Origin: Vairimorpha necatrix
Lineage: Eukaryota
Length of the DNA: 64,000 bases
Assembly (NCBI GenBank): GCA_036630325.1
Contig: CP142728.1
Span: forward strand, 558,001-622,000
Direction of reading: 5' to 3'
This document shows positions 11,175-57,479 of the stretch, in pieces (positions within the stretch are counted from its first letter, which is position 1; every line of letters starts with the position of its first letter). The position numbers and the translations under genes are program-made. The notes beneath the pieces were generated by a model. The model did no database searches and had not been told where the DNA came from. It was given only the letters and a program-made list of their open reading frames with translations.

Positions 11175-11887
11175 CTAACTTTGGGGTAACAATATATGTT
11201 TTTTTTTTAGTAATATTGAAAAATTCACTTTATATTTTGTAAAAATTAATATGTCAAATATGCCCCTTAACCTACTATTCTTTTTACTTTAGCTTTATTA
11301 ATTATGTACAATGTCAAAAGTCCAAGAAATAACAAAAAAATTACATTGCATGCGACACATGCAAATCAATGGCGATAACAATATCATTATAGAATAGAAA
11401 CCATTCGTAAACTTATTTCTCGTTTTTCTGTAACCTCAAATAATTTATTTAATATATTATTTAAAAAAAGCCATTAAGAAACAAGCATGTATATAAATTT
11501 AATAAATTTTAACTACTTAGATCAAGTCTCAAGCCTGATAATAACATTGCTTAATTTTCATAGAAGTCAATTATTTTTATATTTATAAATTTCAATATAT
11601 TCTTAAAGTATATTATTTAATTAGTACTAATCAACGAACCAATTTTTACATATTTTAAAAAATTTAGATATGTATGTATTTTATAAAATTAAACTCCTAT
11701 GTCTTGAGAAAATCATTGTTGCACTATATAGCGTTCTAATTTATGTAAAAAAACATTAATATTTATTTATTAGTTTGGTTTTCTACTAATATATGCTCAT
11801 TATAGTTTAAGAATCACAAAAGTTCGGAACAATAAAAAAAAACTTCATAAATAGCTGCAAGTGTTTTCAACTAACAATATAATTTAA

Positions 11888-14800
11888 TGTGATATATTTG
11901 TATAATTTCTATCCCCCATTATGATAAATAAAGACATGGGGGCGATACCGAATCGTCAGTTTACAAGTGTGGACTGTGGTCTAGAGGCCAAAAAGTTATT
12001 AAAAGAAGTTAGAAGAATAATGTATAGGTTGGAGATGGAGGAAATAGAAATCAGTTTGTGGAAGCAGAGAATATTTATGGAAGGAAGTGAAGAAATAAAA
12101 AATTTCATGGTAGAAAGAATTAGTAAAGAGGACGAATATTATAAAATAATTGAGAAATTAGAGGAGGAAATATGTAGAGAAGAAAGAACTAAAAAAGAAG
12201 AAGAAAATAAGAGAGAACTTATGGAGGTCATAGCTGAGAATGTTAGAGAAACTGTGAGAAAAGAAAATCAAGAGCAAGATTTAGTTTTAAGGAATACAGT
12301 ACAAGAAATAAGAAATAATAGGAATTGTTTTAATTGTGGTAAATTTGGCCATATGGCTAGGAACTGCTATGTAGGAAGGAACAATAATCAGGAAAATAAT
12401 AAAAAGTTTAATAAGTACTTAAATTTAGACGAAAACCAAAGTTGTAGTAGCAGTAATGATAATAAAGAATATAAACCAAGTGGAAAGACAAAACGAGTTA
12501 AGTTAAAGGAATGTAATAATAGTGAAAGAAGACATAAAGAAAGAATATATGCGAGCAATAAAGAGACGAAAAGAAGATTACTAAAGAGGGCATTTACGTT
12601 GGAAGATCTCAAAGCGGAATATGAAGAAGTTTTTAAACAAGGAGATGAGGTTATAAGTTATTGTACATTAGAGAAGTGTAAGATAGATACTCCAGAGGGT
12701 AAGAAGATAGTCAGAAAGGGACAGACGATCCCACAGGCTTTGATCAAACAGACTGAGGAATATATTAATGATTTAGAAAATAGAAAAATTATAAGAAGAT
12801 CGTCTTCGGAATGGCGAAACCCAATAAGAGCGATACTTAAACCAAGTGGTGAAGTAAGAGTAGTTAGTAATTTTATAGGGTTGAATGATTTAGTCGAGAA
12901 AGACCCGTATGAGCTAACGAATATGAGAGAAATAATAAGAGCTACGCAAGGGTCGATAATATTTACTGTTGTTGATTGCAAAGAAGCATTTTACCATTTT
13001 GAAATCGAAGAAAAAGATAAACATAAGACGGCGTTTGAATTTAATAAAAAAGTTTACGAATGGAATAGTATGGTGATGGGATACAAAAATTCCCCACAGA
13101 TACTACAGAGAACGATGAATATGATTTTTTAAGATTTGCGAGGAAATGGTGTTGAGGTATACATGGACGATATAGTAATACATGCCAACAATAAACGTAA
13201 ACACGATGAATTAGTAATAGAGGTTTTAGAAAGAATTAAGAGAAATAAAATGAAATTAAATATTGGGAAAATACAGTTTAGACAAGCGGAAGTAAAATTA
13301 TTAGGTGTGACGCTGAATGGAATAGACATGACGGCCGACGAAATAAAGAAAAATGAAGTCTTGGAGTATCCGGATCCAAAAACTTTGACGGAATTGAGGA
13401 GGTTTCTAGGATTGACTGGATGGTTCAGACCATTTATAAAAGATTATGCCGGGCTGACGTTGAAAATGACAGATAGTTTGAAGAAAAATGGCAATTCGTG
13501 GAAATTTACGGAAGAGATGAAAGAGGAATTTACTAAAATGAAAAATATGTTAAGAAATATGGGAAGACTAAGGTTACCGGACTATAATAAGGAGTTCATA
13601 CTAAGAACAGACGCTAGCAATTTGAGATTAGGTGCGGTGTTACTTCAGAAGAATGAGAATGGGGAATGGGTTGCTATACAATGGGCATCTAAAAAGCTAA
13701 CACCTACCGAAATAAGATATGGAATATCAGAAAAGGAAATGCTTGCGATATATTGGGGCATTGATAAATTTAAATACGAGTTAAGAGGTAGGAAATTCAA
13801 GATAGAAACGGATCACAAAGCACTGGTGGAGATAAGAAATAAACCGTTTTTTAATAATAACAGAATAAATCGCTTAATTGAGAAGATACAGGAATATGAT
13901 TTTATCGTGGAATATAAAAAACCTGATGAGATGGTGGTAGCAGATGCGTTGAGTCGAATAAATATGGAAGAGGATATTAAAGAAATGAAAAATAAAGAGC
14001 GAACAATCAAGCAAACAGAAGGTAAATGGAAAGCACATGTTTCTTCCGAGAATGAAAGGCAATATTGGCAATTTGACTCAGGACGTAAAGTTGAAATACC
14101 ACCTGAGAATATAAGGAGACAATTAATCCAAGAATATCATGAAAAAGTAGGCCACAGATGCATGACAAGTGTTTATTATGCAACGAGAGAAGAATACTAT
14201 TGGCCAGGAGTAAAGAAAGAAATAAACGAGGTTATAAAACAGTGTCAGAAATGTCAGATATATAACAGGAAAAATATGGGTGGTTGTGAATTTGTAGATA
14301 CGTCGAGATACTTAGAGAAGGTTGCATTAGATTTGATAGACTTTAGAAATGAGAAGAAATATGTTTTAGTTGCTATCGATTATTTTACACGTAGAGTATG
14401 GGGAGTAGTTATAAATAACAAGTCAAGTAATAATGTTGTTGGATTTTTGAAAAGATTATGTGAGCAAGGGAAGAAACCAGAAGAAATTATTACAGATAAC
14501 GGGAAAGAGTTTATTAACGTGGAATTTAGAAAATTTTGTAGAGATCTCGATATAATACACCGACAAGTAAGTATAGAAGCGCATAGAAGTAACGGAAGAG
14601 TAGAGCGTGTTATAGGAACTTTGAGAGAAAGTATTTTAAAGTCGGATGCGAAAACTTTTGAAGGTAAAGTGTATAAAAGTATCGATGTATATAATTAGAG
14701 CTATCATACGGGAATAAAATGTACACCATTAGAAGCGACTGAAGATAAAACTGGAGACGTAATGCTTGAAAATAGCCCTATAGGGAAATATTGTAATAGG

Positions 14801-15105
14801 TTTGGAAAAGGAAAGATCGAAAAATTTAGCAAAGGTCAATTGGTAAGAATAGCTAAACGAGAAAATTTGGCAGGTGTTAATAAGTATGAAAAAGGAAGAT
14901 TTTTGGATACAGGAAAAATTGTTGAAAAGTGTGGAAAGGATTCTTATATTGTAAAACTTAGTAATGGTAGGCTTGTGAAGAAGAGACATTATGATCTGAA
15001 GGGTATGCTTGGGGTAGATGTGAAAATTAGATGAGACTAACCGTCTTGAGGGGGGATGTGATATATTTGTATAATTTCTATCCCCCATTATGATAAATAA
15101 AGACA
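11888..15105 (+). mobile_element. Ty3/gypsy LTR retrotransposon 1 with identical 49-bp LTRs; Gag-Pol carries two in-frame stops
   Basis: Identical TG..CA LTRs at 11888-11936 and 15057-15105, TSD TTTAA, PBS TGGGGGC, PPT GAGGGGGGA. CCHC knuckle, RT YMDD, RNase H TDAS and integrase lie in one frame (11921-15034) with stops at 13130 and 14696. Empty site in the right arm near 49611-49615. Confidence 0.96.
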
Positions 15106-15303
15106 TTTAATATCAATATGGCTTATATTCGGATTAAATTTTTGGTCAGTTAAACGCCGCAGACCACTAATCGCCTCTTGAAATGTTTTTGTTTTGCATT
15201 GCCGCATAAAATTTTTTTTAAATCTTACAATTTTAGAAAATAAAACATACAAAAACTTAAAAATAATTTACATTGATTTTTGAGCTGATCTAAAGTTATT
15301 ATA

Positions 15304-24929: not shown

Positions 24930-27900
24930 TGTATTTATTTTCCATAATGGGGTTCAAAAATATAAGAATATATAACATCACCCCTAAGACGGTTAGTCTC
25001 CTACGTCATCATCAACCCTAAGCAGATCTTTTAAGTCATAGTGTCTCTTCTTAACTAATCGTCCATTCATAATTTAACTACATAAGAATCCCCTGGACAC
25101 ACAATCCTAATCATCCCAATATCCAAAAACCTACCTTTTTCATACTTATTAGACCCCTTTAAATTTTTACTCTTAGCAACTTGCACTCTCTGTCCTTCGA
25201 CGAACTTGTCTCTATATCTCTTTTTAAATCGACTACTATAATCTCCTTCTGGTCCATTTCTTAGCATTACATTGCCGTATTATCTTTAACTGCCTCAAAC
25301 GGTGTGCATCTTAGACCTTCATGGTAACTATTATTATAAATCTCAAAGGCCTTCATAACTCTTTCTTCAAAGCTATTTTTGGGATTCATTTTTAAAACAG
25401 ATTCTCTCAACGTACCAATAACTCTTTCAACTTCCCTATTGCTTTTATGTGATTCAATACTGGTCTTTCTGTGAGTTATATCCAACTTTCTGCATAACTC
25501 TCGAAATTCCTCATTTTCAAATTCTTTCCCATTGTCCATATGATTTCTTCTGGTCTTTTACCATTCTACAAAAATTTTCTATAAATCCAGTTATCGAGGT
25601 AGCTTGCTTATCTTTCAACACTCAACCTCATGCGACTCTCGTATAGTAATCAATAACCACTAAAACGAATTTCCTGAAATCTCCATAATCGATTAAATCT
25701 ATTGCCTCCTTTTCTAGGTATCTACTTGTCGCAATAAAATCGCATCCTCCTGATTTTTTCCTATTGTATTTTTGGCATTTTCACATATTTTTATCATCAT
25801 CTTTATATCTTCTTTAATTCCTGGCCAATAATACTCAAACTTTATAGCATAATAGACACTTCCTAGTCCTCTGTGGGCCTGTTCTTCATGGTACCTTTTC
25901 ATTAACTCTAACCTATCACCTACTGCAGGTATTTCTGCTCTACGGCCCGAATCAAAAATCCAGTACTCCTTGTCCCCGACTTTCTCAATGTGCTTATACC
26001 ATTTTCCCGTCATCTGTTTCACTGTTCTTTGTCTAATTATTTCTCTCTTAGGTTCATTTTCCTCATGAATTCTGCTCAATGCATCAGCAACAACCATCTG
26101 ATCGGGTTGCCTGTACTCAATTTCAAAATCAAACTCTTGGATCATCTCTATCCACCTGTTAATCCTATTATTATTAAAACATGGCTTTCTTCGTATTTCT
26201 GCTAAAGCCTTATGATCAGTTTCAACCTTAAACTTTCTTCCTCTTAATTAATACTCAAACTTCTTTATGCCCCAATATACGGCATACATCTCTTTCTCGC
26301 TAATTCCGTATCTAGTTTCCGTCGGAGTAAATTTCTTTGATGCCCATTGTACCGGCACCCATTCCTCTTTTTCATTTTTCTGCATAAGTACAGCTCCCAT
26401 ACCAATATTACTCGCATCCGTTCTTAATAAAAATTCTTTTTCGTAATTAACAATCCTCAATTTCCCTAAATTCTTAAGCACTTTTTTCATATTCTCAAAT
26501 TCAATATCCAACTCCTCAGTCCAATTCCAACTTTTGTTTTTCCCTCTTAAGCAATCTGTCATGTGTATCGTTTTCTCTGCGTAGTTCTTTATAAATTCTC
26601 TAAACCAACCACTTAATCCTAAAAATCTTCTTACGTCGGTTACATTTTGCTGCTTTGGAAATTCTAATGCTTCTTTTTTTATCTCGGATGGCATCATATC
26701 CTGCCATTCAATACTACTCCTAATAATTTAACTTCTGATTGACGATACTGTATCTTCTTCGAGTTTAATCTCAGGTTATTCTCTTCTAACAGTCTCATTG
26801 CCTCTAAAAACAATTTGTCGTGTTCTTCTCTAGTCTTGGCATGTATCACAATATCATCCATGTAAACTTCTATTCCTCTTCCCAAATACTTCTCAAAAAT
26901 CTTATTCATAATCCTTTGCATGATCTGTGGCGAATTTTTAAACCCCATGACCATGCTGTTAAACTCGTATACTTTCTTATCAAACTCAAACGCGGTCTTA
27001 TGCTTATCCGCTTCTTCTATCTCAACCTTATAAAAGGCTTCTTTAAGGTCAATAACACTCATAATCTTCGAGCCTTGCGTGAACCTAATAATATCCCTGA
27101 TGTTACACAACTCATATGGATCCTTCTCTACTAAATCGTTCAGGGCCATAATATTACTGACCAAACGTATGATCCCATCCGACTTAACTATAGCCTTTAT
27201 CGGATTCCGCCATTCAGAGGTTGGTCTTTTAATTACATTTATTTTCTCTAAATCCTCTAAGTGCTTCATTAATTCGTTTTTATGCGCTTAAGGAATCATC
27301 TGTCCCTTCCTAACGACTTTTTTCCCTGCTTCTGTCTGAATTTACATTTCTCTATTTTACAATACTTAATTTTTCCCTTATTTTCATCAATCACGTTTTT
27401 AAATTTCTTCTTAACATCTTCTAAGTCGGCCTCTTGAATGTTGTCGTCTCATAACTTCCCTTCTTAATATCTTTTATTTCCCCAGTTCGTTTCCATAGTG
27501 AAACGGGCCTAACTTCTATCTGTTTCTTTTGCCTTTTACCAGCCCACGTATTCCTGTAATATTTTCCATCGCTGCTGCTACTGTCCTCTCGATATATCTT
27601 CTCGCATTCTTGTTTATTTCTCTCCTCTCTGTATCTATTATAACATCTATTACCTTTATGTCCTAACCTTTCACAATAAAAACATCCCATTGTTCTCAAA
27701 TAACGTTTCCTACGCTCTATCTCCTCTGTATATGTTTCTTTTGTCAACTTCTTTGTGACCTCTTCAATCATTCTAAATCTCTCTTTTACATCTTCATAAT
27801 CTTTAACAATCTCTTTTAATCGTATTCCTATCATGTCATGGTGATCCTCTAAACTTATTCTCATAACCATAAAAATTTTTCAGCTCCAAACTTCCTTTTT

Positions 27901-28091
27901 CAAAAATAATTTTCTTCAAATCTTCATCGCTTCTACACTCAATAACTTTGATCTCATACATAATAATCTTATATTCTTGCAATAGTTTTCTGGCCTCTTG
28001 ACCACAGCCAACACTTGTTAACTCACGATTTGGTATCGCCCCATGTATTTATTCTCCATAATGGGGTTCAAAAATATAAGAATATATAACA
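24930..28091 (-). mobile_element. Ty3/gypsy LTR retrotransposon 2 (degenerate) with 48-bp LTRs
   Basis: LTRs at 28044-28091 and 24930-24977 with one mismatch. Imperfect TSD ATATA/AGATA. Fragmented Gag (CFYCERLGHKGNRC), RT (YMDD), RNase H and integrase ORFs. Confidence 0.93.
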
Positions 28092-29110
28092 AGATATTAT
28101 GATAGTGATAATCCAATTTTAACTTCAACCAAGCTTTCTGTTTTAAATTATAAGCATTTATTATGCCTATAAGATTTGTACCTTATTTCATAAGTTTGAC
28201 TATTTTAGAGCTAATATAATTAAATTTATACGATAAAACAAACAAAACTTATCAAATATTGGGGCTATGAGGGAAATTACACTCCAAAGCGTTTCAACCT
28301 CCCCCCCCCCCACTTCTTTAAAATTACAAAACGCACGAATTTTTACTTTTTATATATTTTTTTTTCTAGGGGGGGGCGATTTCCCAAGCTATGGTCCCTT
28401 CCCCTTTTCTTTCCCATTTTTCTTACCCTTCATGCTAGCAAGGATATTAAAATAGGTGGGTGAACTTAGTCTTTAAAATCCCTTGTTCCAAGATAACGAT
28501 CTCGCAATTACGCTTTTGGTAGAATTAGATGTTGTGGTGTTACCACCAGGGAGGAGGCCTGTTTGTAGGTAGCATTCGATGATGCTCCTTCCTGCAATAG
28601 ATATAGTATATTTTTATTTAAATTGTGTTTATTGTATTTCCCCGATGGGCTAGTTTAGTTCCTCGTGTGAGGAGGTAAGGTATGAGAGACCTTCCCGACG
28701 TCACTGTATCTGTCTTTGTTTCCAGTTCTTCTCATCTTCCAAAAATAGGGGTAAAGTAAAAAGAAAATATTTATAGCAAAATATTTTCTAGAAAATTCAT
28801 TTGAGGGAAATAAATAAAAATAAAATAATGTGGTAAATAATACCACAGATGTAAAAAAATTCTACCATTTCACGTGTCTCAAAGTCATGCCTAGGAAACA
28901 TGTCTATTGCTAGAGTTTCTTTCTTTATTGATGGGAAAGGGTATAGATGTACCGTAAACGATTGCACAAGCAAACGTAATTTGAAAAAGCACAAAAATTT
29001 TAAAATGATTATCGAATTAAAAAGATCCCGAGGTGTTAATATTGGTGGGCCTTATCTTACTCTAATTTTCAAGCTCTCAATTTTTGCAAAATAGCCGAGT
29101 CCACATTTTA

Positions 29111-32100
29111 TGTTATATATCCTTATTATTTTTACCCCTCATTATGGAAAATAAACACATGGGGGCGATACCAGAAAATGGGTCTACAAAGGAGGACCGT
29201 GGCCAAGAGGCTAGAATATTATTAAAAGAGGTTAAAAGGATTGTTTATGAGTTGTTTTTAGAGGAAATTGATGAGTGTGGATTTAAATTAGAAATTTTTA
29301 GGAGAGGTTCTATTTTATTGAGAAATTTTATTGTTGAGAGGATCTCGCAAGAGGGTAGTTGGAAGGAAATTGAGGAAAAATTAGAGTTGCTAGCTATTCA
29401 GGAGGAAAAGGAACAAGTGAGAAAAAAAGAATTTGAAGAGTTGTCCCTAGCGTTATGGGCTAAATTTGAGGAGAAGAATAAGTTGTCTCGTGAGGAAAAT
29501 AAAAAGAATATGCGTTGCTACAATTGTGGGAAGTTAGGCCATAGTGTTAGATTTTGTAGGGGAATGAGGCGAGATTCTGAAGACAGAAGAAATAAAAGTA
29601 GTTTTAATTATGTTGGTAAATGTAAAGTGCAATTAGACTTAGAGGGTAAATGTGATGACGATTCCAATTCGGACAAATGTGATTATTATAATGTTGATGG
29701 TGGGAAACGTAAGAAGAAAAATTTAGGGGATATACAAGATTATAGCAAAAGGGACAATAATAAGAGAGTTCTGTTGAGAAGGGATGTAAGAGGCATCGCG
29801 TATTTAGAGGAGATTATTTCACGGGTAGGAGGAAGAGAGGATGAAGATATTAGTTTTTGTAAGGTTGAAAAATGTATTATCAAGACTCAAGAAGGCAAGA
29901 AAGTTGTTAAAAAAGGGCAGGCTATAGCTCAGGCTTTGTTGAAGAAGACGGAAGATTATATTAATAGTTTGGAAAGAAGAAAGATAATTAGAAGGTCGAC
30001 ATCTGACTGGAGAAATCCCATTAGAGCGATTGAGAAACCGAATGGTGATATAAGATTAGTAAGTAATTTAATTGCTCTTAATGACATTGTAGAGAAGGAT
30101 CCTTATGAGTTAACTAGGATAAGAGATGTTATTAGAAGTACACAGGGATCTGAATTTTTTACCGTGATAGATCTAAAGGAGGGTTTTTATAGTATTGAGA
30201 TTGAAGAGAAGGATAGGTTTAAGACGGCTTTTGAGTTTAATAAAAAGGTATACGAGTGGAATTCGATGGTCATGGGGTTTAAAAACTCACCGCAGATATT
30301 ACAAAGAATAATGAATGGGATTTTTGAAAAATTTATTGGTAAGGGAATCGAAATTTATATGGATGATATTGTGATTCATAGTAAGACAAGAGAGGGTCAC
30401 GACAAATTGTTGAAAGAGGCTGTGGATATATTAGAGGAGAATAGTATGAAAATTAATTTGGCTAAGGTTCAATTATGTAAACGAGAGGTGATGTTGTTAG
30501 GAGTAACAGTTAATGGCAAGGAGATACTGCCATCTGAAATAAAGCAAAATGAAGCGTTAGAATTTACCAAACCGGAGTGTGTATCAGATGTTAGGAAGTT
30601 TCTTGGGCTGGCTGGATGGTTTAGAAATCATATTGATAATTATGCAAAACGTACATTGGCGTTGACGGATTCTCTTAAAGGACGAGGAAGTAATTGGAAA
30701 TGGACAGAAGAAATGGAAAAAGAATATATTAGTTTAAGGGAAGTGATTAGGGATTTAAAAGGTTTAGCAATTGTTAATTATAATAAGGAATTTTTGTTAC
30801 GCACGGATGCGAGTAATGTTGGAATGGGTGCTGTTTTAATGCAGGAAGATGATCAAGGTAATTGGGTACCAGTACAGTGGGCATCAAAAAAGTTTACGCC
30901 TACGGAAACGAGATATGGAATCAGTGAGAAGGAGATGTATGCAGTCTTTTGGGGAATTAAAAAGTTTGAATATGAACTACGCGGAAGAAGATTTAGGGTA
31001 GAAACTGATCATAAGGCATTGATCGAGATTAGAAATAAACCAGCATTTAACAATAATAGAATTAACAGGTGGATTAAAAAGATTCAAGAGTTCGACTTTA
31101 GCATTGAATATAGAGAGCCTAGTACCATGGTTGTAGCAGATGCACTGAGTAGGGTACATGAAAATGAGAAAACGCTAATGAATAAGGAGAGAAGTATTAA
31201 ACAGGCACAGGGTAAATGGGACAAGCATGTTAAAGTTGTTGATGGGAAGGAAATTTGGGTATTTGACTCTGGTAGAGAAGCGGAGATTCCAAAGAAAGAA
31301 TTGCGTGAAGGTTTAATTGTCAATGCTCATGAAAATTTGGGACATAGAAGTTTAGGATCAGTGTACTATGCAATGAAGTTTGAATTTTATTGGCCGGGTA
31401 TGAAGAAGGATATCGAGGATGTTTTAAAGAAGTGTGAAGTTTGCCAAATATATAATAGGAAAAAGAGTGGTGGTTGTGATTTTGTTAGTTCAAGATTTTA
31501 TTTGGAAAAGGTTGCTTTGGATTTGATTGAGTTTAGAGATTTAGGGAAATATGTGTTGGTCGTGATTGATTATTATACTAGGATCGTTTGGGGAAAAGTA
31601 ATAGAGGACAAACGCGGAAGCTCGGTTGTAGGATTTTTAAAACAGTTGTGTGGATCAGGAATGAAACCGGTAGAAATAATTACTGACAACGGTAAAGAAT
31701 TTAGTAATGAATATATGAGGAATTGGTGTTCAGAGGAAAATGTATTACATAGGAAAGTAAGCGTAGAAAGTCATAGAAGTAATGGAAGAGTGGAAAGGGC
31801 AATAGGAACCATAAGAGAAGGAATATTGAAAGATGATGCTGTGGATTTTGAAGCCAAGGTTAATAGATGTATATGGCGTTATAATAACAGCTATCATGAA
31901 GGGTTGAGATGTACACCGTTTGAGGCCTCAAGAGACGAAACGGGCCATGTTATGATCGAGAATGGACCTGAAGGATTTTATAGTAGGAGGTTTGTGGCTC
32001 GCAAAAGAGAGAAATTCTATAAAGGTCAGAGAGTTAGGGCAGCGAAGAAAGAGAACTTATCGGGTTGTAGTAAGTATGAGAAAGGAAGGTTTTTAGGATA

Positions 32101-32294
32101 TGGTGTTATCAAGGAAGTTTGCGGAGGTGACTCGTACTTAGTTAGTTTGGAAAATGGTAGGATCGTGAAAAAGCGGCATTATGATTTAAAAGGTCTGCTT
32201 GGGATTAATGAGTTCTAGTATGAGACTACCGTCTTGGAGGGGGGATGTTATATATCCTTATTATTTTTACCCCTCATTATGGAAAATAAACACA
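29111..32294 (+). mobile_element. Ty3/gypsy LTR retrotransposon 3, apparently intact, with identical 49-bp LTRs
   Basis: Identical LTRs at 29111-29159 and 32246-32294, TSD TTTTA, PBS TGGGGGCGATACC, and a purine tract immediately before the 3' LTR. Confidence 0.97.
29144..32218 (+). CDS. Single-ORF Gag-Pol (mini-Gag with CCHC, RT, RNase H, integrase; no evident protease)
   Basis: Uninterrupted 1024-codon frame from the LTR-internal ATG: CYNCGKLGHSVRFC, IDLKEGF, YMDD, TDAS...SEKE...TDHKAL, H-x4-H...CEVC, and LDL...TDNGKEF...NGRVER. Confidence 0.93.
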   Translation: MENKHMGAIPENGSTKEDRGQEARILLKEVKRIVYELFLEEIDECGFKLEIFRRGSILLRNFIVERISQEGSWKEIEEKLELLAIQEEKEQVRKKEFEELSLALWAKFEEKNKLSREENKKNMRCYNCGKLGHSVRFCRGMRRDSEDRRNKSSFNYVGKCKVQLDLEGKCDDDSNSDKCDYYNVDGGKRKKKNLGDIQDYSKRDNNKRVLLRRDVRGIAYLEEIISRVGGREDEDISFCKVEKCIIKTQEGKKVVKKGQAIAQALLKKTEDYINSLERRKIIRRSTSDWRNPIRAIEKPNGDIRLVSNLIALNDIVEKDPYELTRIRDVIRSTQGSEFFTVIDLKEGFYSIEIEEKDRFKTAFEFNKKVYEWNSMVMGFKNSPQILQRIMNGIFEKFIGKGIEIYMDDIVIHSKTREGHDKLLKEAVDILEENSMKINLAKVQLCKREVMLLGVTVNGKEILPSEIKQNEALEFTKPECVSDVRKFLGLAGWFRNHIDNYAKRTLALTDSLKGRGSNWKWTEEMEKEYISLREVIRDLKGLAIVNYNKEFLLRTDASNVGMGAVLMQEDDQGNWVPVQWASKKFTPTETRYGISEKEMYAVFWGIKKFEYELRGRRFRVETDHKALIEIRNKPAFNNNRINRWIKKIQEFDFSIEYREPSTMVVADALSRVHENEKTLMNKERSIKQAQGKWDKHVKVVDGKEIWVFDSGREAEIPKKELREGLIVNAHENLGHRSLGSVYYAMKFEFYWPGMKKDIEDVLKKCEVCQIYNRKKSGGCDFVSSRFYLEKVALDLIEFRDLGKYVLVVIDYYTRIVWGKVIEDKRGSSVVGFLKQLCGSGMKPVEIITDNGKEFSNEYMRNWCSEENVLHRKVSVESHRSNGRVERAIGTIREGILKDDAVDFEAKVNRCIWRYNNSYHEGLRCTPFEASRDETGHVMIENGPEGFYSRRFVARKREKFYKGQRVRAAKKENLSGCSKYEKGRFLGYGVIKEVCGGDSYLVSLENGRIVKKRHYDLKGLLGINEF

Positions 32295-32729
32295 TTTTAT
32301 GAATTAAAAATATTTTAATGGATATTATAAGCGAGACTCCTTTGGGAATAAAAAAGTTAGAGGTAGAGAAATGCAAGGATACAATTCGATAAACTGCCAT
32401 ATGCAATGGCTTAGTGATTGATATTCCATCATCTTTACACGACGATACTTCTAATGTACAATGGACATTTGGAGGAGTTGTAGAAAGTGATGAGACGAAT
32501 TTTTTGTTTCATCAATTCCTAACAGAAAACATGAAACTTTATTAGAATAATTTAAAAAACATTCACTTCCTGAACTGTTATTATTACTGATGGATACTTA
32601 TCATAACCCCAAAGCCGTGGCTAATTTTGGATCTGAGCATGAGATAGTCAACCATAGCAAAGGATTTGTTAACAGCAAGTGTAAATATACAAATAAGATT
32701 GAAAATTTATGGTTCTACTTAAAACACAT

Positions 32730-34022
32730 GGCGTTACTTAAAAATCCGCCCCCTTCCTAAAAAAAATTACATTGACCAATTAAATTTATAAAAAAAAAAT
32801 ATTTTTAACCCTTAAAATTATATTTAAAACAATATTTTTATGAAAATATGAATCTACAAAAGTTAAAATATTTAAGAAAACAGTTATAACATATTATTTA
32901 GTTCAAAAATTTAATTACTTTAACATAGAAAAAATACAATTATTTTTACGAAGGCTAATTTGATTGTAAATGATTTTGAATATTCTATATTTTCTTTTTT
33001 CCATTTAAACTCATCTATTAACATTTAATTCTTATTTTATTCATTCCTCCACGCTTTCTATAATCATGCTTAAGATGCGACCACATATTTTCTACATAAT
33101 TTGTATTTTGTCCTTCTTCATTAAAATCCCATAGAGTGATTTACCACACTATGGTGAGAACCAAATTCACTTATAGCACGTGGATAGGATGGATAACCAT
33201 CAGTTACTATATCCGTGCCTACTTTTACATATTTTTTTAATACTAGTAAAATCGTTTCCCATTTTCTATTGGGTATTAGTTCCACAAAAAACTCTCTACA
33301 ATTTCCTTCGAATACACCTCCTATTATCCACCGAATTCCAGGTTTAGAATCCAATCGACTAGGCGGATTCGATACTATAATTCCATTACAAATAGCTGTT
33401 TCGTCTATTTGTATCCTCCGACCAACTCCACCTATCGTTGTAACAACAGTAGAAGACTTGGAAATTGTTTCCATTATTATTTCTTTTACAGAAATATATG
33501 TTGGTTCAGAAGTTTCACACATGTTGATAGCCTGAAAATATGTATATGACAAACACCAACAATAAATGCAACGAAGAATTTTTTAAATTCAATATCTAAA
33601 GATTCAAATTTAGAACCTTTATCTAATGAACATCTTCGTTTAAAATTTTTTAGCTACATTTGTACCCCTTTCCTTGAGAAAACAAAGATATGTTTTGAAT
33701 GAACATAATTCCTTTGCACTGATCATTAGTGCAGGGAATACAAGGATATAACAAGTTGTTCTTCAATCCGCAGTCGATTGCCCTGTCATTATCAGTGAAA
33801 ATAGGATTGAATGGATTGAATTGAAGCATTTCGTCCATCATCCTGTTCATTATAAGGGAAAGATAAAATAAAAAAAAATTTCACGTTCAAAATACCATTA
33901 CTTAAAAATTCGCACCCCCTGGAAAAGAGGCCCTTTAAAATTTGATTTTATCTCATTTTATACCAAATAATTTTTTTTCAGCGAACGTATTTTTTAGGGG
34001 GGGCGAATTTTTAACTAGCGCC
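32730..34022 (-). mobile_element. Merlin/IS1595-like transposon with disrupted transposase
   Basis: TIRs GGCGTTACTTAAAAATCCGCCCCC / GGGGGGGCGAATTTTTAACTAGCGCC, 8-bp TSD AAACACAT, and IQIDET, WIIGG, TDGYPSY, HSVVNHS motifs in split ORFs. Confidence 0.92.
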
Positions 34023-45671: not shown

Positions 45672-46643
45672 TTATTTTGTATCAAATATTCTTCTTGATA
45701 TTGTGTTTATATCATATTCATAAATTTTATGTTCAGAAGATACAAATATTTTAAAGTCTTCTTCTGAGATTGTTGCTCCTGTTATTTGCACATCATCTCC
45801 TAGATTTACTAATTGACGTTTTTCGAAACTTCTAGCATCAAATATTGATAGGTAAGAAGATTGTTCAGTGAAAAATATCAAATCTAATGACTTTTTAATA
45901 CTGAAGAAGACATTTCGAACTGCTCCTTTATGAGTTCCTTGTTGTTTACTTCTTAAAATATATGACTTTTCGTCCGATCTCAAATCCCAAACACTAACAA
46001 ATCCATCTTGCGACGCAACAGCAAACTTATTTGAGAAATTATTCCAAGCAACACTAAAGCCACTGTCATTAATGGTCTTCAGTTTCTTTAAGAATCTATA
46101 ATTTGAATTTTCGATTACGTATAAAAATACATCATTCGAATCTCCTACCATTATAAGATATTTTCCATCAGGACTCACACTTGTATGATTTATTTGGCTA
46201 ATAAAATCAATAGTTTGTACTGAATCATTTTCTACAGATAGAATTCTTAATTTTCGATCATTATTCGACGCATAAATTTTTTTGTCGTGAATTGATATAT
46301 GGTTATTGATATTATCACTTAAAAAATAATATTTCGTTTCGTTATTAATTAAATTTTTGACGTATAACTGTCCTTTTCCTCCGCCTATTGCAAGAAAATC
46401 TTCTTCAACACACAAAGAAGCTGGGGGAAACGATAAATCTTCCGATAAAAGGAGTTTTGTTCTTGTTTTAGGATCATAAGAATACACCTTATTTGATTGT
46501 GGAAATATTAAATTTCCATTATGGATCTTTAGCATATCTTTAAGTTGCCAGTGTTGAGTTACTACTCCTTCATCATGAACTTTAAATTCGGGAAATATAA
46601 AATCCGAAACTTCGCGTATATCATTATTCTCTATTGTTGACAT
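45672..46643 (-). CDS. WD40-repeat protein (right copy)
   Basis: Protein identical to the left copy. Confidence 0.8.
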   Translation of the reverse strand: MSTIENNDIREVSDFIFPEFKVHDEGVVTQHWQLKDMLKIHNGNLIFPQSNKVYSYDPKTRTKLLLSEDLSFPPASLCVEEDFLAIGGGKGQLYVKNLINNETKYYFLSDNINNHISIHDKKIYASNNDRKLRILSVENDSVQTIDFISQINHTSVSPDGKYLIMVGDSNDVFLYVIENSNYRFLKKLKTINDSGFSVAWNNFSNKFAVASQDGFVSVWDLRSDEKSYILRSKQQGTHKGAVRNVFFSIKKSLDLIFFTEQSSYLSIFDARSFEKRQLVNLGDDVQITGATISEEDFKIFVSSEHKIYEYDINTISRRIFDTK

Positions 46644-46809
46644 AAACAATAACAATTTTGATTTTTTTATAGTCTACAAAAACAAAGCAATTTTTTAATA
46701 TTTGATAAATGAAATGTTTTATATTTTTTAAACTACAATTATTAGTAAAATTTGATAAATTGTTTATTAATTACAGTTAGGTTTTTAAAAATTTGTATTG
46801 TATTACAAT

Positions 46810-47364
46810 CTAATCAATAAAAAGTGTAAGCATCTGAAAAGCTTCTTTTTTTCTTGCGGCCAATTCTTTAAAATCTTCAAATGTAAAAAATCCACTTTTA
46901 TTATCACAACATTCAAAAAGCTCATCAATAGCCTTTTCTATGTCAATATGTGCGTCAAGAGTGTTACTAACCATGTCCATCATTGATTGTGCAATATTAA
47001 CTATCTCGTTTTTGGAAATGACCCCGTCACTATCCTCGTCATAAAACCGAAAAATCCATCTCAATTTTTCGAAATTGCTGCCTTTCATTAAAATACTGAA
47101 AGCAATTAAAAGTTCATGAAAGTCAATATAATCTGATTGACTTATATTAATTGTATTGAATAATCTTAATACAAATTTCTTGGGAGATCCAAAAGGAAAA
47201 AATCTTCTAAACATCATTTCTAAATCTTGTAATGTCATTTTTCCATTTGGAAATCTTGTCCTAAATTCATTTGACCATTCTTGTACATCTTTTGAGGGAA
47301 AATGAGAAAATTTTTTTGAGTCGTCTAAGTCGAAGTTTTTTAAAGTGCTCGATCTGTTGCCCAT
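46810..47364 (-). CDS. FRQ1: Frequenin/NCS-1-like protein (right copy)
   Basis: As the left copy, with one N/Y difference. Confidence 0.85.
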   Translation of the reverse strand: MGNRSSTLKNFDLDDSKKFSHFPSKDVQEWSNEFRTRFPNGKMTLQDLEMMFRRFFPFGSPKKFVLRLFNTINISQSDYIDFHELLIAFSILMKGSNFEKLRWIFRFYDEDSDGVISKNEIVNIAQSMMDMVSNTLDAHIDIEKAIDELFECCDNKSGFFTFEDFKELAARKKEAFQMLTLFID

Positions 47365-47458
47365 GGGTATAAAAAACAATAATTTATAATAACAATGTAA
47401 ACATTCTCAAATAAAAAAATTCATTTAAAAATAATTAATATCGTTTTTAATTTATTTT

Positions 47459-48685
47459 TTATTCTTCAGTTGGAGGTAAATTAAAATATGAAATTTTTCC
47501 TCTATTCCAATCATGTAAAATCGTCTTACTAATTAAATCAACATAAGGTCTATTACCTTTTGTAATCTTACCATATTTCACTGAAAATTTTTGAAATAAA
47601 TCTTCTATGTCTCTAAATTCAATTCTGTATAATTTAGATATTTCTGTTTTATATTTATTTGCTAATAATTCTACGTAATATTCTGGATTCTCAAGATTTT
47701 CTATACGAATAGCCCCCCTAAAAACAGCCTGTTCAAAATCAGGAATTGGGACGACTCCCGGGCAGTCTATCAAATAAATGCTACGGGTCAAAGTAATGTA
47801 TTGCCAAACTTTTGTCTCGCCAGGCACAGGTGCCACATTACATACATGTTTATTTCTAAGTGAATTAATTATACTACTTTTCCCACTATTTGGATACCCT
47901 ACAAATCCTACGCTTGTATGTTTTTTATTATACAAGTTATCAAGCTGTCTCAAAATATTTATTAAATTTGTCTTACCAAAATTATTTTCCAAAGACTGTG
48001 CGTGATAAGCCAAAGTGGTGTGTTTATTGGAAAAATATTTTAGCCATTTGGCAGTCACTCCTGTCGGAACCAAATCTACTTTATTTAGTAGGTAAATTAA
48101 ATGTTTATGTGGGGCTTCTTCTTTTATATATGTTGAAATCTTCTCACACATTGTACCAAGTGGATCTCTCGCATCTAAAACATGAATAATAACATCGCTG
48201 CTATCTAAAACTTTATATAGCTCTTTCCAAATTCTAGTACTTTGTCCTTTGACTGCATCTTTTTTAATTTCTTTTTTTTCGGCTATTACTTCATTTTTGC
48301 TTTTAGCCATTTCTTCTAAGCTTGTTACTAACAACTTTGGTTTTTTTCTTATTGCTTTCTTTCCGAAAATGCTGTCATATTCAACTGTATTTTTTTTCTT
48401 TTTATTTTCTGTAAGAAGTGAATATGGAACATTACCAGTCTTAAGAAGCACATTGTATGGTGTTTCAATTTTTGACGCCTCTCTAAATTTTTCAAGATCT
48501 AATTGAGAAACTGTTTTACTGGCTCTAAACCATTTTCTATCTGGATGAATTCTACCAGTCTTTGCTTTAGATTTTTGAAATTCTGCTGGTTTTATAATTT
48601 CAGCTCTTGAATTTCTTATTGGTTTATCACCTCTAATCATATTCAAGTACTTTATATTTTTTTTATTATAGAAATTTTCTTTCAT
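47459..48685 (-). CDS. NOG2: Nucleolar GTP-binding protein 2 (intact)
   Basis: 408 aa with RIHPDRKWF, KGQSTRIWKELYKVLDSSDV, DARDP, NKVD, GYPNSGKS and DCPG. Confidence 0.95.
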   Translation of the reverse strand: MKENFYNKKNIKYLNMIRGDKPIRNSRAEIIKPAEFQKSKAKTGRIHPDRKWFRASKTVSQLDLEKFREASKIETPYNVLLKTGNVPYSLLTENKKKKNTVEYDSIFGKKAIRKKPKLLVTSLEEMAKSKNEVIAEKKEIKKDAVKGQSTRIWKELYKVLDSSDVIIHVLDARDPLGTMCEKISTYIKEEAPHKHLIYLLNKVDLVPTGVTAKWLKYFSNKHTTLAYHAQSLENNFGKTNLINILRQLDNLYNKKHTSVGFVGYPNSGKSSIINSLRNKHVCNVAPVPGETKVWQYITLTRSIYLIDCPGVVPIPDFEQAVFRGAIRIENLENPEYYVELLANKYKTEISKLYRIEFRDIEDLFQKFSVKYGKITKGNRPYVDLISKTILHDWNRGKISYFNLPPTEE

Positions 48686-48715
48686 TTTTTATGGGATAAA
48701 AAAAAACATAACATT

Positions 48716-48913
48716 TTATTTTAATTCTTTGTACGCACGATTCAAAATTCCTTCAACTCGTGATTTAAGACCAACAGCTCCATCTTCAGTAATAAATACA
48801 AGAAAATCATTAATATTTTCAATAATAAAATTTTCATTTTCTCCAATAGAGCAAATGACTTCTTTAATACTTGGCTCAGTTTTTACTAAATAACCTTTTG
48901 TGATTGAAACCAT
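48716..48913 (-). CDS. TFB5: TFIIH subunit TFB5 (right copy)
   Basis: Protein identical to 16042-16239. Confidence 0.85.
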   Translation of the reverse strand: MVSITKGYLVKTEPSIKEVICSIGENENFIIENINDFLVFITEDGAVGLKSRVEGILNRAYKELK

Positions 48914-50320
48914 TAGGGGTAAAAATATAAAATAAAAAATAATTTTTTACATTAATGAAAAACGGTAAATTTAATATATGTTAAAATAAATATAAATTCA
49001 AAAAAATTAAACGGGTAAAATATGTTACAATTAATACTTCTTATAGATCATAGGAATTTATATAAATTTGTTTATATTCAATAAATTTAATACATATAAA
49101 CTGCCTTATTGAATTTAAGCTTTAAATATTTTGTCTAGTATAACATATTTCAAATAAATTAAATCAACAATTAAAGATTTAAATATTTATTTTTAATTTG
49201 TACAAAAAAATTAACTTAAGCGCACAAGAAGATTATATATTAATCGATTATGGGTCTGTAACCATTAAGTACATTCACTTAGTTTTATTACACTAAGAAC
49301 ATTGCCAATAGGCGGTACTAGTTAAGTTTCTTATTTTTAAAGTGTGACACAATTGGCTTACATAGTATGAGTTGTAAGTTTTTATAACAATTGCAACTAA
49401 TGTTTTATTTCTTGGATATATAATAACTTTAGATCAGCTCAAAAATCAATGTAAATTATTTTTAAGTTTTTGTATGTTTTATTTTCTAAAATTGTAAGAT
49501 TTAAAAAATTTTTTATGCGGCAATGCAAAACAAAAACATTTCAAGAGGCGATTAGTAGTCTGCGGCGTTTAACTGACCAAAAATTTAATCCGAATATAAG
49601 CATTTTTGAATTAAATTATATTGTTAGTTGAAAACACTTGCAGCTATTTATGAAGTTTTTTTTTATTGTTTCGAACTTTTGTGATTCTTAAACTATAATG
49701 AGCATATATTAGTAGAAAACCAAACTAATAAATAAATATTAATGTTTTTTTACATAAATTAGAACGCTATATAGTGCAACAATGATTTTCTCAAGACATA
49801 GGAGTTTAATTTTATAAAATACATACATATCTAAATTTTTTAAAATATGTAAAAATTGGTTCGTTGATTAGTACTAATCAAATAATATACTTTAAGAATA
49901 TATTGAAATTTATAAATATAAAATTAATTGACTTCTATGAAATTAAAACAATGCAATTAACAGGCTTGAGACTTGATCTAAGTAGTTAAAATTTATTGAA
50001 TTTATATACATGCTTGTTTCTTAATGGCTTTTTTTAAATAATATATTAAATAAATTATTTGAGGTTACAGAAAAACGAGAAATAAGTTTACGAATGGTTT
50101 CTATCCTATAATGATACTGTTATCGCCATTGATTTGCATGTGTCGCATGCAATGTAATTTTTTTGTTTTTTCTTGGACTTTGGACATTGTACATAATTAA
50201 TAAAGCTAGAGTAAAAAGAATAGTAGGTTAAAAGGCATATTTGACATATTAATTTTTACAAAATATAAAGTAAATTTTTCAAAATTACTAAAAAAACATA
50301 TATTGTTACCCCAAAGTTAG

Positions 50321-51883
50321 ATGTTTCTCATTTTATTCAATTACTTACATTTAAAGGCATCACACACACAAAAAGAAAAAGAAGATAAGACTCTATTTTT
50401 GCAAGATTCATCTGAAAATGTTAAGGATACAATTTTTGAAGAATTTTTAAGTAATAACGAAGATTTTCAATTTGATTTTAAGCCTTTTGTTCCATCAGAA
50501 ACACTTAAAAAATCTCCTGTTCAAGGTTGTAAAATTTTGAAAAACCTAGAATTAAAAAACGAAAAAAGTACAAAAATTCCCATGAGCCAATCTTTTTATA
50601 AGTTTTATTCCGTAAAAAATCAATATAATGATAAAACAAATGTTATTGATTTATCTATTAAATCAAGGATACCAATGTATGACTACAATTCATTGAAAAA
50701 TAAATCTAAACAAAAAGATCAAAATTTGATTAAAAACGAGCTTGAAGTTAAAGCTACAAAGAACAATCAACATGATTCAAAAACAAAAATGTCGGATACT
50801 TCGGGGAATCAAACAGAAAATAGCACTATAGAGTGTTTAATCTCGAAATATTTTGAGAAAAAAGATAATACCCAGAAAAACAAATATGAAAATCCATATT
50901 GGTTATTTTTTTTTGAAGAGGATTTTTTTAAAGAAATGTTAATTTCAGAACATTCAAGTTATATCGAGAATCTTAAATCATCTTATGTGACATTAAAAGG
51001 TTTAATTAAAACTATAACCGAAAGACTTGTCCTTTATAAAACTAAAAATGAACTAAAACTATATAAAATTAAAATAATAGATCAAAATTTAAATTCTATT
51101 ATGGATTTTTATCGTAAATGTATAAGACAATTATATTTTACGATTTGGAACATGTCTTTGTTTGACGAGTTACAAAATCAACAAGATTTAATACAGTCGC
51201 TTATCAAACTAGAAAGCCAAAAATATATTTTTTCGGATTATATAAAAAAATCTTTGATGTCTTTTGATGATAAAATTATACTAGATTCAAAATTAGGCGA
51301 GTTACAAATCAAAACTAAAGAGTTTAATGCTATCTTTGAAAATGAATTTACATTTATATTCAATATATCAAAAATATTTAGGCAAAAAATTATTGAATTT
51401 GATAGTTCTTGTAATTTTTATAGTAATCGTATAAAAATCTTTGAATATATATATGCACTCTCGTATTTGGAGTCTCATTTTAATGAAATGAAGTCAAAAT
51501 TTAAAATTGTAAGTCGTCCACAACTTCCAGAAATTGACATGGTTTTTATGTTTAGTCTAGAATATTTTTTGGATTTTGAAAATAGAGATATCTTAGAATA
51601 TTGGATTAGAATAAGTAAACTCATTTTCGCCATAAAGAAAGAATCAAATCTCATATTTTTTCAATATAGCACGTCCTTGACTGCACAGACCATGGAAGTT
51701 ATCAGAATTCTGATGAAATCAAGAAAAAACAAGTCAAAAATCCACAACTTAATTTGTGATGGAATGTTTATTCCGTTCATCCAGGAATTAATAATAAAAT
51801 TAGACGTTCCCTTCTTAGATGATATTGAAACTATATTAAACGACTCTATACAAAGATATATTTGTTCGAAAACAAATCATTAA
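50321..51883 (+). CDS. Hypothetical 520-aa protein, possibly secreted (intact)
   Basis: Long ORF with a CCCC motif upstream and a short hydrophobic N-terminus. No recognised domain. Confidence 0.75.
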   Translation: MFLILFNYLHLKASHTQKEKEDKTLFLQDSSENVKDTIFEEFLSNNEDFQFDFKPFVPSETLKKSPVQGCKILKNLELKNEKSTKIPMSQSFYKFYSVKNQYNDKTNVIDLSIKSRIPMYDYNSLKNKSKQKDQNLIKNELEVKATKNNQHDSKTKMSDTSGNQTENSTIECLISKYFEKKDNTQKNKYENPYWLFFFEEDFFKEMLISEHSSYIENLKSSYVTLKGLIKTITERLVLYKTKNELKLYKIKIIDQNLNSIMDFYRKCIRQLYFTIWNMSLFDELQNQQDLIQSLIKLESQKYIFSDYIKKSLMSFDDKIILDSKLGELQIKTKEFNAIFENEFTFIFNISKIFRQKIIEFDSSCNFYSNRIKIFEYIYALSYLESHFNEMKSKFKIVSRPQLPEIDMVFMFSLEYFLDFENRDILEYWIRISKLIFAIKKESNLIFFQYSTSLTAQTMEVIRILMKSRKNKSKIHNLICDGMFIPFIQELIIKLDVPFLDDIETILNDSIQRYICSKTNH

Positions 51884-52126
51884 ACAATTTTTTTTAGTAT
51901 TTAAATGTTATCAAACAATTATATAATAAATATTATTTTTACTTGTAATATGTATGATCATTTTTTTTTGTATTGATTTTAAAAATTTAACTCTGGTTAG
52001 AAATTAAATTAATCAATCAAAAAATATCAATTACACTAAAATTTGTAATTTAACCATACATTCTTATTAAACCAATAAATCAAAAAAAATTAATTTGCTA
52101 AAAAAAAAAAAATAATACTACCCCCT

Positions 52127-53692: not shown

Positions 53693-53712
53693 AGATTGTA
53701 AAAATTTTATTT

Positions 53713-54702
53713 TTATATTATCATATGTGCAGCCTTTTTCACTCTGTCCATAATCGCTTCTCCTTCCATTTCTATAGAAACTCCTTTTGTTATTATAATA
53801 TCACATGTCTCGTCTAGCTTTCGTAACCCCTTAAATAAATTCATAGCTACCTCGTATGGTTTATTGCCTAAATAAATAGTTTCACAATCTTGTTCTCTTT
53901 TTATTTTTGGTTTAAAATCGTAGTGTGTTAATATCCCTACTTTTTTATACTCTTTAACTAATTCTTCAATATTAACTGAATCACTAATTATCAAAACAAA
54001 TTTATTATTTGGACTATAATGTTTATATTTTTGACCTGGGCAGATTTGTTGATTTCCTATCTTTTTAACGGAATAATTTATATTGATTTTTTCACCTATT
54101 AGTTTTTCTAAAACTTCAATGCAAATTCCACCCGGTCTGAGTATCGCAGGACTATCTAAATAGGTAAAAACCGTCGACTCTAGACCGACTCTACATTCGC
54201 CGCCATCTAAATAAAGAGGACATTCTTCACCAAAATCATCAATAGTGTGTTGGACGCACGAAGGACTTGGTTTTCCACTGAGATTTGCTGAAGGTGCAGC
54301 TAAAGGAATGTTGAGTTTTTCAATAATTTCCAAAATAACTTTATTGTCTGGCATTCTTACTAAAATTGTATCTAGTCCAGCTGTGACTGTACGAGAAACA
54401 TTTTTATTGGCTTTAAAAAGCAGTGATATTGGGCCAGGCCAAAAGTTTTCTATTATTTTTTCATAGACTTTAGGTATTTCTCCCTCAATGACTGTTTTTA
54501 ACATCTCAATAGAAGAAACATGCACTATAAGTGGATTATCCGAAGGACGACGTTTTAATTTATAAATATTTTTTAAAGCATTTTCATTGTTTATTGCGGC
54601 TGCTAATCCATAGACGGTTTCTGTTGGTATAACAACTACGTCCTTTTCAAAATAATGAAGTATTTTATTAATATCTAAATTTTCAATTGATAGAATTTTC
54701 AT
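53713..54702 (-). CDS. SUA5: Threonylcarbamoyl-AMP synthase (right copy)
   Basis: As the left copy. Confidence 0.95.
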   Translation of the reverse strand: MKILSIENLDINKILHYFEKDVVVIPTETVYGLAAAINNENALKNIYKLKRRPSDNPLIVHVSSIEMLKTVIEGEIPKVYEKIIENFWPGPISLLFKANKNVSRTVTAGLDTILVRMPDNKVILEIIEKLNIPLAAPSANLSGKPSPSCVQHTIDDFGEECPLYLDGGECRVGLESTVFTYLDSPAILRPGGICIEVLEKLIGEKININYSVKKIGNQQICPGQKYKHYSPNNKFVLIISDSVNIEELVKEYKKVGILTHYDFKPKIKREQDCETIYLGNKPYEVAMNLFKGLRKLDETCDIIITKGVSIEMEGEAIMDRVKKAAHMII

Positions 54703-54762
54703 GGGTTTAAAATATTTCTTAAAAATAATACCGTTATTTTTTTCATTTAGTTCCCCTCTTAA

Positions 54763-55974: not shown

Positions 55975-56024
55975 ATAAAAAATTTTATTTTTTTAGATTT
56001 AAAAATTTTCATCTTATTCCCTTT

Positions 56025-56504: not shown

Positions 56505-56521
56505 ATTTTTTTATCCTCTTT

Positions 56522-56908: not shown

Positions 56909-56943
56909 AAAACAAACTAAAAAATTTTCAAGTTAAATTTTTT

Positions 56944-57333: not shown

Positions 57334-57479
57334 AAATTTTGTTTATAAGTTTCATTGTTGATGACGTGTCATAGATGTTGTATCAAAATATTTAACTGAC
57401 CAGAACGAAAATTTATTTTTTATAAAAAAAATTTAACGTTCATTAATTTGTGCAAAATAATTTTTAAAATATTTTTTAA

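Follow-up and report, generated by a model that had tools for sequence, protein, structure and literature searches.

Can a long terminal repeat (LTR) retrotransposon persist and move without a protease of its own? The question is raised by a 64,000-nucleotide (nt) stretch of the Vairimorpha necatrix genome (GenBank assembly GCA_036630325.1, contig CP142728.1, positions 558,001 to 622,000, forward strand; hereafter the window, in which all positions below are counted), which carries three copies of one retrotransposon family, elements 1, 2, and 3. The aspartic protease counts as a gene that every LTR retrotransposon and retrovirus has and cannot do without: its cleavages control particle maturation and activate the reverse transcriptase (RT) and the integrase (IN), both of which are matured by cleavage in canonical Ty3 and in retroviruses. 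An earlier note, made from the sequence alone, had described the polyprotein of element 3 as lacking this enzyme. Here we confirm that the retropepsin is truly absent from the element 3 polyprotein and conclude, from comparison with its relatives, that element 3 is intact and belongs to a clade of ultra-compact LTR retrotransposons of the Ty3/gypsy type from microsporidia.

Element 3 is a complete unit of 3184 bp (29111-32294, + strand), and its LTRs, target-site duplication (TSD), primer-binding site (PBS), polypurine tract (PPT), and domain order identify it as Ty3/gypsy-type. The two 49-bp LTRs (29111..29159 and 32246..32294, +) form a perfect direct repeat, 100% identical, with TG...CA ends; their sequence opens with TGTTATAT and closes with AAACACA, and the LTR pattern is matched four times in the window against zero matches expected. 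Matching copies of the TSD, TTTTA, were read directly on either side (29106..29110 and 32295..32299, +). The PBS, TGGGGGCGATACC (29160..29172, +), recognized by its position and TGG start, abuts the 5′ LTR, and the PPT, GGAGGGGGGA (32236..32245, +), likewise read directly, abuts the 3′ LTR. Elements 1 and 3 thus have the TG...CA direct repeats and 4-6-bp TSD that define Ty3/gypsy LTRs, and element 3 has the PBS and PPT in their expected places. The PBS, which starts with TGGGGGC, may be of the tRNA-Pro type; scans of the window for tRNA genes and for Rfam families each returned 0 matches.

The compactness of the element is extreme. Its start codon lies inside the 5′ LTR (ATG at LTR positions 34-36), preceded by a C-run at positions 25-28, 6 nt ahead of the ATG, and followed by AATAAA at positions 40-45, 4 nt from the LTR end. 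The PBS falls within the open reading frame (ORF), where it is translated as codons 6-10 (MGAIP), and its 13 nt are the same in elements 1 and 3 even though the proteins of the two elements are merely 48% identical. In all three elements the C-run plus AU of the LTR can pair over 6-7 bp with AUGGGG(G) at the LTR/PBS junction (29135-29166 in element 3, 11912-11943 in element 1, and 28068-28038, − strand, in element 2), and the lengths of the two runs change in step (element 1, C5/G5; element 2, C4/G4). Such pairing could serve Tf1-like self-priming or form a start-codon hairpin; it is short, however, and the folds are no better than those of shuffled sequences (z −0.8 to −1.4).

The element is almost wholly filled by a single intact ORF of 1024 amino acids (aa) (29144..32218, +; ORF list and Pfam), and neither strand holds another ORF of at least 100 aa. 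Its first part, encoded by 29144-29900 (+), comprises residues 1-252, the entire region ahead of RT, and includes a CCHC zinc knuckle of the nucleocapsid type (residues 125-138, 29516..29557, +; 124-138 according to Pfam). RT and RNase H follow at residues ~216 to 650 (29789..31093, +), RT opening with an L..Y..VF motif, and the integrase, composed of an HHCC zinc domain, a DDE core, and a C-terminal domain, occupies 31292..32215 (+). The Pfam coordinates (RVT_1 296-456, RT_RNaseH_2 520-619, RT_RNaseH 546-650, Integrase_H2C2 717-772, and rve 792-870, beyond which the DDE core extends) give the order RT, RNase H, integrase, with the integrase last, as in Ty3/gypsy elements. No chromodomain family was found in the ORF at E<=1, so that the defining feature of chromoviruses is missing. 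All the catalytic hallmarks are invariant in an alignment of 23 members: D407 and D408 of the RT YMDD box, D555 of RNase H, H729, H734, C764, and C767 of the HHCC domain, and D793, D848, and E884 of the integrase, with RT conservation running from C239 onward. The knuckle residues C125, C128, H133, and C138 are invariant in 23/23 members; Pfam zf-CCHC matches 15 of 19, and Foldseek returned short matches of the knuckle to that of the human immunodeficiency virus 1 (HIV-1) nucleocapsid.

What the polyprotein does not contain is a self-encoded retropepsin between Gag and RT, the one component of the Ty3/gypsy layout that fails here. The earlier note had seen no hydrophobic-D[ST]G motif upstream of RT, and the motif [hydrophobic]2-D-[ST]-G-[AS] indeed occurs there in 0/44 family proteins. 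Five independent tests, each with a positive control, point to the absence of the protease. First, Pfam detected no aspartic-protease family at E<=1 in the 1024-aa ORF, and none upstream of RT in the 12 protease-less proteins scanned (P0001, P0034, P0022, P0011, P0014, P0036, P0009, P0013, P0008, P0127, P0145, and P0138); in the control, a Pfam protease was recovered from 6/6 compact protease-bearing relatives (E 1.4e-8 to 0.047). Second, a hidden Markov model (HMM) built from 31 outgroup proteases matched 60 of 121 proteins, none of them among the 44 of the family; across the window, cut into 459 six-frame pieces, nothing scored better than E 0.29. Third, hhalign gave a probability of 0.1% for residues 1-240 of the family against the protease profile; two sets of proteases aligned to each other at 99.7% (E 2e-26). 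Fourth, an AlphaFold2 model of residues 1-240, based on an alignment of 19 sequences, has no beta domain, and Foldseek found 0 matches to the pre-RT model in PDB at E<=0.001. The same steps applied to the protease-bearing sister P0269 with 5 sequences produced a beta domain at residues 201-299 and 17 PDB matches at E<=0.001, all of them retropepsins (equine infectious anaemia virus, HIV-1, Ddi1). Neither the active-site loop nor the beta-rich fold of ~100 aa that, along with a C-terminal [IL][IL]G motif, characterizes a retropepsin is therefore present in the family, as judged by motif, model, and profile, and the checks of the N-terminus that the earlier note had proposed, by profile and by AlphaFold, revealed no such fold.

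The fifth test, that of the space available, tells the same story. Both the final Cys of the knuckle and the first conserved RT block can be located in 38 of 44 family proteins; they lie 49-187 aa apart (median 70), and less than 115 aa apart in 35 of the 38, whereas the 8 compact protease-bearing relatives with both marks have 115-210 aa; those 35 family spacings thus lie below that of every such relative. The three long family linkers (P0011, P0022, and P0034) are of low complexity and have no protease match. One could still suppose that a highly divergent or relocated protease is hidden in the polyprotein, given that simple annotation is insensitive and that precomputed Pfam lists miss the real proteases of sister elements. 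We consider this very improbable: the sensitive tests are all negative while their controls pass, the spacing is too short in 35/38 members, the remaining 789 residues are collinear with the RT-RNase H-IN part of relatives that have a protease, and the sub-threshold matches to Peptidase_A17 (P0011, E 0.047; P0145, E 0.0023) fall in the RT-RNase H region.

What, then, precedes RT? The Gag of ~120 aa and the stretch of ~100 aa between knuckle and RT that the earlier note had estimated correspond to 124 aa ahead of the knuckle and 97 aa from the knuckle to the first conserved RT block (residue 236), of which ~77 (residues 139-215) are hydrophilic, 57 of the 77 (74%) being polar or charged. The N-terminal part is predicted by AlphaFold2 as a Gag-like helical module (residues 16-122, 29189..29509, +; predicted local distance difference test score (pLDDT) ~94-97) with short helices at 16-39, 44-54, and 57-66 and a 50-residue helix at 73-122, so that the compact bundle comprises only ~75 aa plus the long helix. 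In a wide structural search, capsid lobes accounted for 5 of the 50 matches shown and were aligned to model residues 15-89; all these matches are within noise, the C-lobe of Arc (4x3x; Z 6.1, root-mean-square deviation 2.6, 64 residues aligned) being accompanied by the Arc C-terminal domain (CTD; 7r24, 7r1z), the Rous sarcoma virus (RSV) capsid CTD (3g26, Z 5.4), and the RSV particle (5a9e). The family Gag profile aligned with the Gag of protease-bearing relatives at a probability of 39-51% (E 1.5e-4 to 3e-4) over the helices carrying 'S..L..F....W'; two sets of Gags from the protease-bearing relatives matched each other no better (44%). None of the 25 Pfam families shown, out of 46, for 19 members is a Gag family. 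Collectively, we take the model and profiles to hint at a reduced capsid, probably of one lobe rather than the two that mark Ty3/gypsy Gag. The earlier note's proposal of a reduced capsid is upheld as far as size goes, but the reduction is not tied to the missing protease: the protease-bearing P0200 and P0250 also have only ~100-115 aa ahead of the knuckle, and a short Gag is thus not a consequence of protease loss.

Between the knuckle and RT, after a short helix, AlphaFold2 places a disordered hydrophilic linker (residues 148-215, 29585..29788, +; pLDDT ~40, no secondary structure) containing a DDDSNSD..YY..GKRKKK patch. The patches quoted in the earlier note, rich in Ser/Asp, Tyr, and basic residues, are indeed shared by elements 1 and 2 along with the overall layout, and by P0004, P0005, and P0006; they are absent from more distant members, so that the patch is kept in one subclade rather than in the family. 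The patch may act as a nuclear localization signal, a phospho-site, or a host-protease site, the candidate roles named in the earlier note. Across the family, the linker varies from ~25 to ~190 aa and is hypervariable in sequence as well, with a looser NK..NY motif after the knuckle partly conserved in ~13 of 23 members. Comparison with contigs from public runs yielded 134 differences, 40 of them listed; one variant contig holds 86, and among its 30 listed differences 21 are synonymous and 9 nonsynonymous. In the pre-RT part of that copy, the listed differences are 13 synonymous and 4 nonsynonymous, and in linker residues 173-227, 7 and 2. Because of this synonymous excess, the N-terminus and the linker look constrained as protein, on a partial list of differences.

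A linker of this kind might be cut by a protease of the host cell, here the parasite itself, perhaps together with a second site separating IN from RT-RNase H; examples of candidates to which the task could be outsourced are retropepsins of the Ddi1 type, subtilisins, and the proteasome. The predicted exposure and disorder of the linker, the NK..NY motif, and the predominance of synonymous linker differences, small as these numbers are, speak for such cleavage. The extreme variability of the linker in length and sequence, the confinement of the patch to one subclade, and the lack of any candidate protease gene within the window speak against it, and we regard a host protease as possible but unlikely.

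The absence of the protease is not peculiar to the window. A search of 5.8 billion proteins recovered 43 close relatives of the element 3 protein (E 0 to 7.5e-105, 41-98% identity over the aligned parts); similarity then falls off abruptly, the next matches being generic Ty3/gypsy proteins at E 3e-79. Most of the close relatives are ~1000 aa long and are encoded on contigs of 3.0-3.3 kb; those with names come from Nosema granulosis, Vairimorpha necatrix, and Enteropsectra breve, and P0138, likewise protease-less but less closely related, is from Nematocida sp. All 44 family proteins are without a protease. Their compact protease-bearing relatives were drawn from the best 150 matches of a representative search dominated by long multi-copy gene models; these polyproteins are 975-1294 aa long and, for elements that are alone on their contig, the contig measures 3.3-4.2 kb. 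P0200, P0250, P0212, P0269, P0146, P0209, and P0233 (~975-1160 aa, contigs ~3.3-3.7 kb) have the same RT-RNase H-IN part as the family, and some have an equally short Gag with a CCHC knuckle, but they keep a retropepsin of ~100 aa (with DTG or DSG, or DPG in P0146) where the family has the disordered linker. The sisters' protease ends at the L..Y..VF motif that opens RT, precisely where the variable linker of the family lies.

Trees built on RT-RNase H-IN (57 rows, 786 columns; midpoint root only) place 28/28 protease-less rows on one side of a branch supported by a Shimodaira-Hasegawa-like approximate likelihood ratio test (SH-aLRT) value of 89 in the quick tree and by an ultrafast bootstrap (UFBoot) of 95 and SH-aLRT of 64 in the careful tree, for which a single change in protease status suffices in 94% of 200 bootstrap trees. 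Their sister group is a protease-bearing trio (support 99), and both are nested in a 41-row compact clade (support 100) apart from the generic Ty3/gypsy elements. Since every group outside the protease-less clade has a protease, one loss is the economical reading, and the tree fits a protease lost once, long ago, in this clade; on this reading the loss would predate the split of distant microsporidian genera. The earlier note's view of the missing protease as a family trait rather than a deletion accordingly needs a qualification: the trait is common to all 44 proteins, but as the family is nested among protease-bearing elements it would still have arisen by a deletion, only an ancient one. 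Close master copies with a protease, which would have undermined that view, did not emerge among the proteins searched, the nearest protease-bearing elements forming a separate, deeper clade.

The same elements could in principle act as helpers, a compact protease-bearing Ty3/gypsy element in the same genome supplying the enzyme in trans. Such elements do exist in microsporidia (P0233 from Nematocida, and P0286 from Dictyocoela and P0331 from Pseudoloma, the last two being named matches of the profile of protease-bearing relatives that lie outside the tree). Yet the 64-kb window has no protease-like sequence despite its three family copies, and none of the 120 relatives listed for the protease-bearing profile is named as Nosema or Vairimorpha, a weak point given that most rows are unnamed. 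Moreover, ORFs have stayed intact in a protease-less clade that is both old and diverse, so that a helper with matching cleavage sites would have had to persist throughout. A helper in trans therefore strikes us as improbable. A search with the N-terminal 420 aa of a sister gave 3 matches.

Several further observations concern these relatives. The retropepsin of the sister P0146 (residues 237-352) has D-P-G at its active-site loop, and its neighbours P0153 and P0269 keep DTG; this protease may already be degenerating beside the clade that lost the enzyme. The protease-bearing P0269, P0276, P0277, P0146, and P0209 have M-A-P at or near the ORF start where the family has M-A/G, which suggests that the ORF-embedded PBS is a trait of the whole compact clade. 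A family scan of metagenomes yielded five loci, two of them close (L001 1-3271 and L002 1040-4143); each holds a relative with 47% identity that begins in the RNase H region and continues with the rest, and no direct repeats of at least 25 nt were found in either. They may be circularly permuted or tandem assemblies of a short-LTR element. P0020, P0280, and P0282 are filed under bacterial metagenome-assembled genomes (Clostridium sp., Aeromonas sp.), probably through eukaryotic contamination of the metagenome bins.

Is the lineage alive? The missing protease might simply mark a defunct lineage of dead relics, and elements 1 and 2 are indeed broken. Element 1 (11888..15105, +) has the same layout as element 3, but its ORF is interrupted by stop codons; its 49-bp LTRs are identical (direct repeat, 11888-11936 and 15057-15105, +), its TSD is TTTAA (11883-11887 and 15106-15110), and its PPT, GAGGGGGGA, occupies the same place as in element 3. 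Element 2 (24930..28091, −) is a heavily decayed copy whose 48-bp LTRs (28091-28044 and 24977-24930, −) differ by 1 mismatch and are flanked by TATCT and TATAT. These copies reside in a window that is largely an inverted duplication, with arms at ~1671-22062 and 42892-58915 that are 94-100% complementary in 12 collinear pairs and differ by the insertion of element 1; the duplication may exist in the genome as a segmental palindrome, or the assembly may have created it. In the other arm lies a paralogous empty site with a single TTTAA and matching flanks (49611..49615, −), which fixes the borders of element 1 and dates its insertion after the duplication. Element 3, for its part, looks recently mobile, because its LTRs are identical, its TSD is perfect, and its ORF is intact. 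The public sequencing runs listed included none of RNA; contigs from four runs were compared with element 3. Two of the four give a contig of 3165 nt, equal to one repeat period of 3135 plus 30, and several different flanks begin exactly at the LTR ends, so that near-identical copies must occupy other sites elsewhere. All this, together with the dozens of diverged members that keep ORFs of ~1000 aa, makes a dead lineage hardly credible.

How might a protease-less polyprotein work? The reading we favour, at an even chance, is that it functions as one unprocessed chain, without any self-processing. The reduced Gag module, with its capsid-lobe-like bundle, long helix, and CCHC knuckle, would bind the element's RNA together with the primer and chaperone both; the flexible linker would tether this module to RT-RNase H and the integrase; RT-RNase H would copy the RNA, and the integrase would insert the DNA, generating the 5-bp duplication. 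The basic patch of the linker, GKRKKK, would serve nuclear import. A closed, matured capsid or particle is unlikely in this scheme, as there is no protease, the Gag:Pol ratio is forced to 1:1, and only a fragment of a capsid is encoded. Carried to its end, the idea describes an autonomous lineage with neither protease, maturation, nor closed capsid, in which the ~118-kDa chain, a one-protein 'retrotransposase', works in cis on the mRNA that encodes it, and the 49-bp LTR would combine the promoter, the start codon, the poly(A) signal, and the R region; this stronger version we hold to be plausible, at somewhat under an even chance.

Several considerations weigh against the uncut chain. We infer it from the absence of the protease, and an active chain of this kind would be unusual, because single-ORF elements with a protease, such as Tf1, need cleavage, and Ty3 and retroviral RT and IN are matured by it. 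The capsid-lobe likeness on which the Gag role leans has Z scores of 5.2-6.1 within a list whose rows all lie at 5.2-6.4, the noise level for helical models. The NK..NY motif and the synonymous excess in the linker could mark a conserved cleavage or binding site. Finally, polyproteins of Nosema bombycis have a protease domain, according to the passage of PMC2474625 that cites Xu 2006; these elements may belong to another group.

Some known systems resemble element 3 in part. Polymerases of hepadnaviruses and DIRS-type elements work without a self-encoded aspartic protease. Unlike element 3, however, neither has a DDE integrase or integration of the LTR/TSD type, the hepadnavirus core protein is the product of a separate gene, and there is no sequence relationship to element 3 beyond RT and RNase H. 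Fungal elements of the Tf1/sushi type encode Gag and Pol in one ORF without a frameshift, and Tf1 resembles element 3 in this single ORF; it differs in encoding a protease and needing its cleavage. The short LTR/PBS pairing, no better than in shuffled sequences, is reminiscent of Tf1 self-priming, in which the transcript's own 5′ end pairs with the PBS and primes. Among Ty3/gypsy elements at large, element 3 is set apart by the lack of a retropepsin, by 49-bp LTRs far shorter than usual, by a total length of 3.18 kb, and by a start codon inside the LTR and a PBS inside the ORF. The closest match in the literature is provided by the single-polyprotein Ty3/gypsy groups specific to microsporidia (Parisot et al. 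2014, PMC4202319), which share with element 3 the TG..CA LTR ends, 5-bp TSD, PBS, PPT, RT-RNase H-IN order, CCHC knuckle, and one polyprotein ORF, the named relatives of element 3 being microsporidian too. In the main text of that paper, the word 'protease' occurs 0 times; it occurs 0 times as well in the accessible text of a 2026 genome paper (PMC13174016), which there repeats only the single-polyprotein point. A literature search that missed most subscription journals found neither a description of an LTR retrotransposon lineage without a protease nor a paper on microsporidian retrotransposon proteases.

The window is AT-rich (20-36% G+C). Its ordinary eukaryotic genes include those for an XPG nuclease, a protein of the Nop56/58 type, a thioredoxin protein resembling PDI, and a WD40 protein. 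In the unique centre of the duplication, elements 2 and 3 lie head to head, accompanied by remnants of DNA transposases at 33121-33522 (−) and 37914-38558 (−), with an ISXO2/IS1595-like (Merlin-type) domain and a MULE domain, respectively. A short repeat consisting of a G-run and then CGA (TTTCTAGGGGGGGGCGATTT and variants; 28363-28382, 33990-34009, and 34202-34221, also 28296-28312) resembles the PBS/PPT region of the family, with a long C-run nearby, and may represent debris of other copies.

A diverse, still-mobile clade without a protease amounts to a natural experiment on whether maturation is required. At 3.2 kb, with 49-bp LTRs and no untranslated sequence, element 3 sets a lower size mark for an integrase-type retroelement, and LTR finders or classifiers that demand LTRs of at least 100 bp or a protease domain will miss or misfile such elements. 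Should the protease-free autonomous chain prove true, these would be the minimal known DDE-integrase retroelements, and the capsid-and-protease maturation step would be dispensable.

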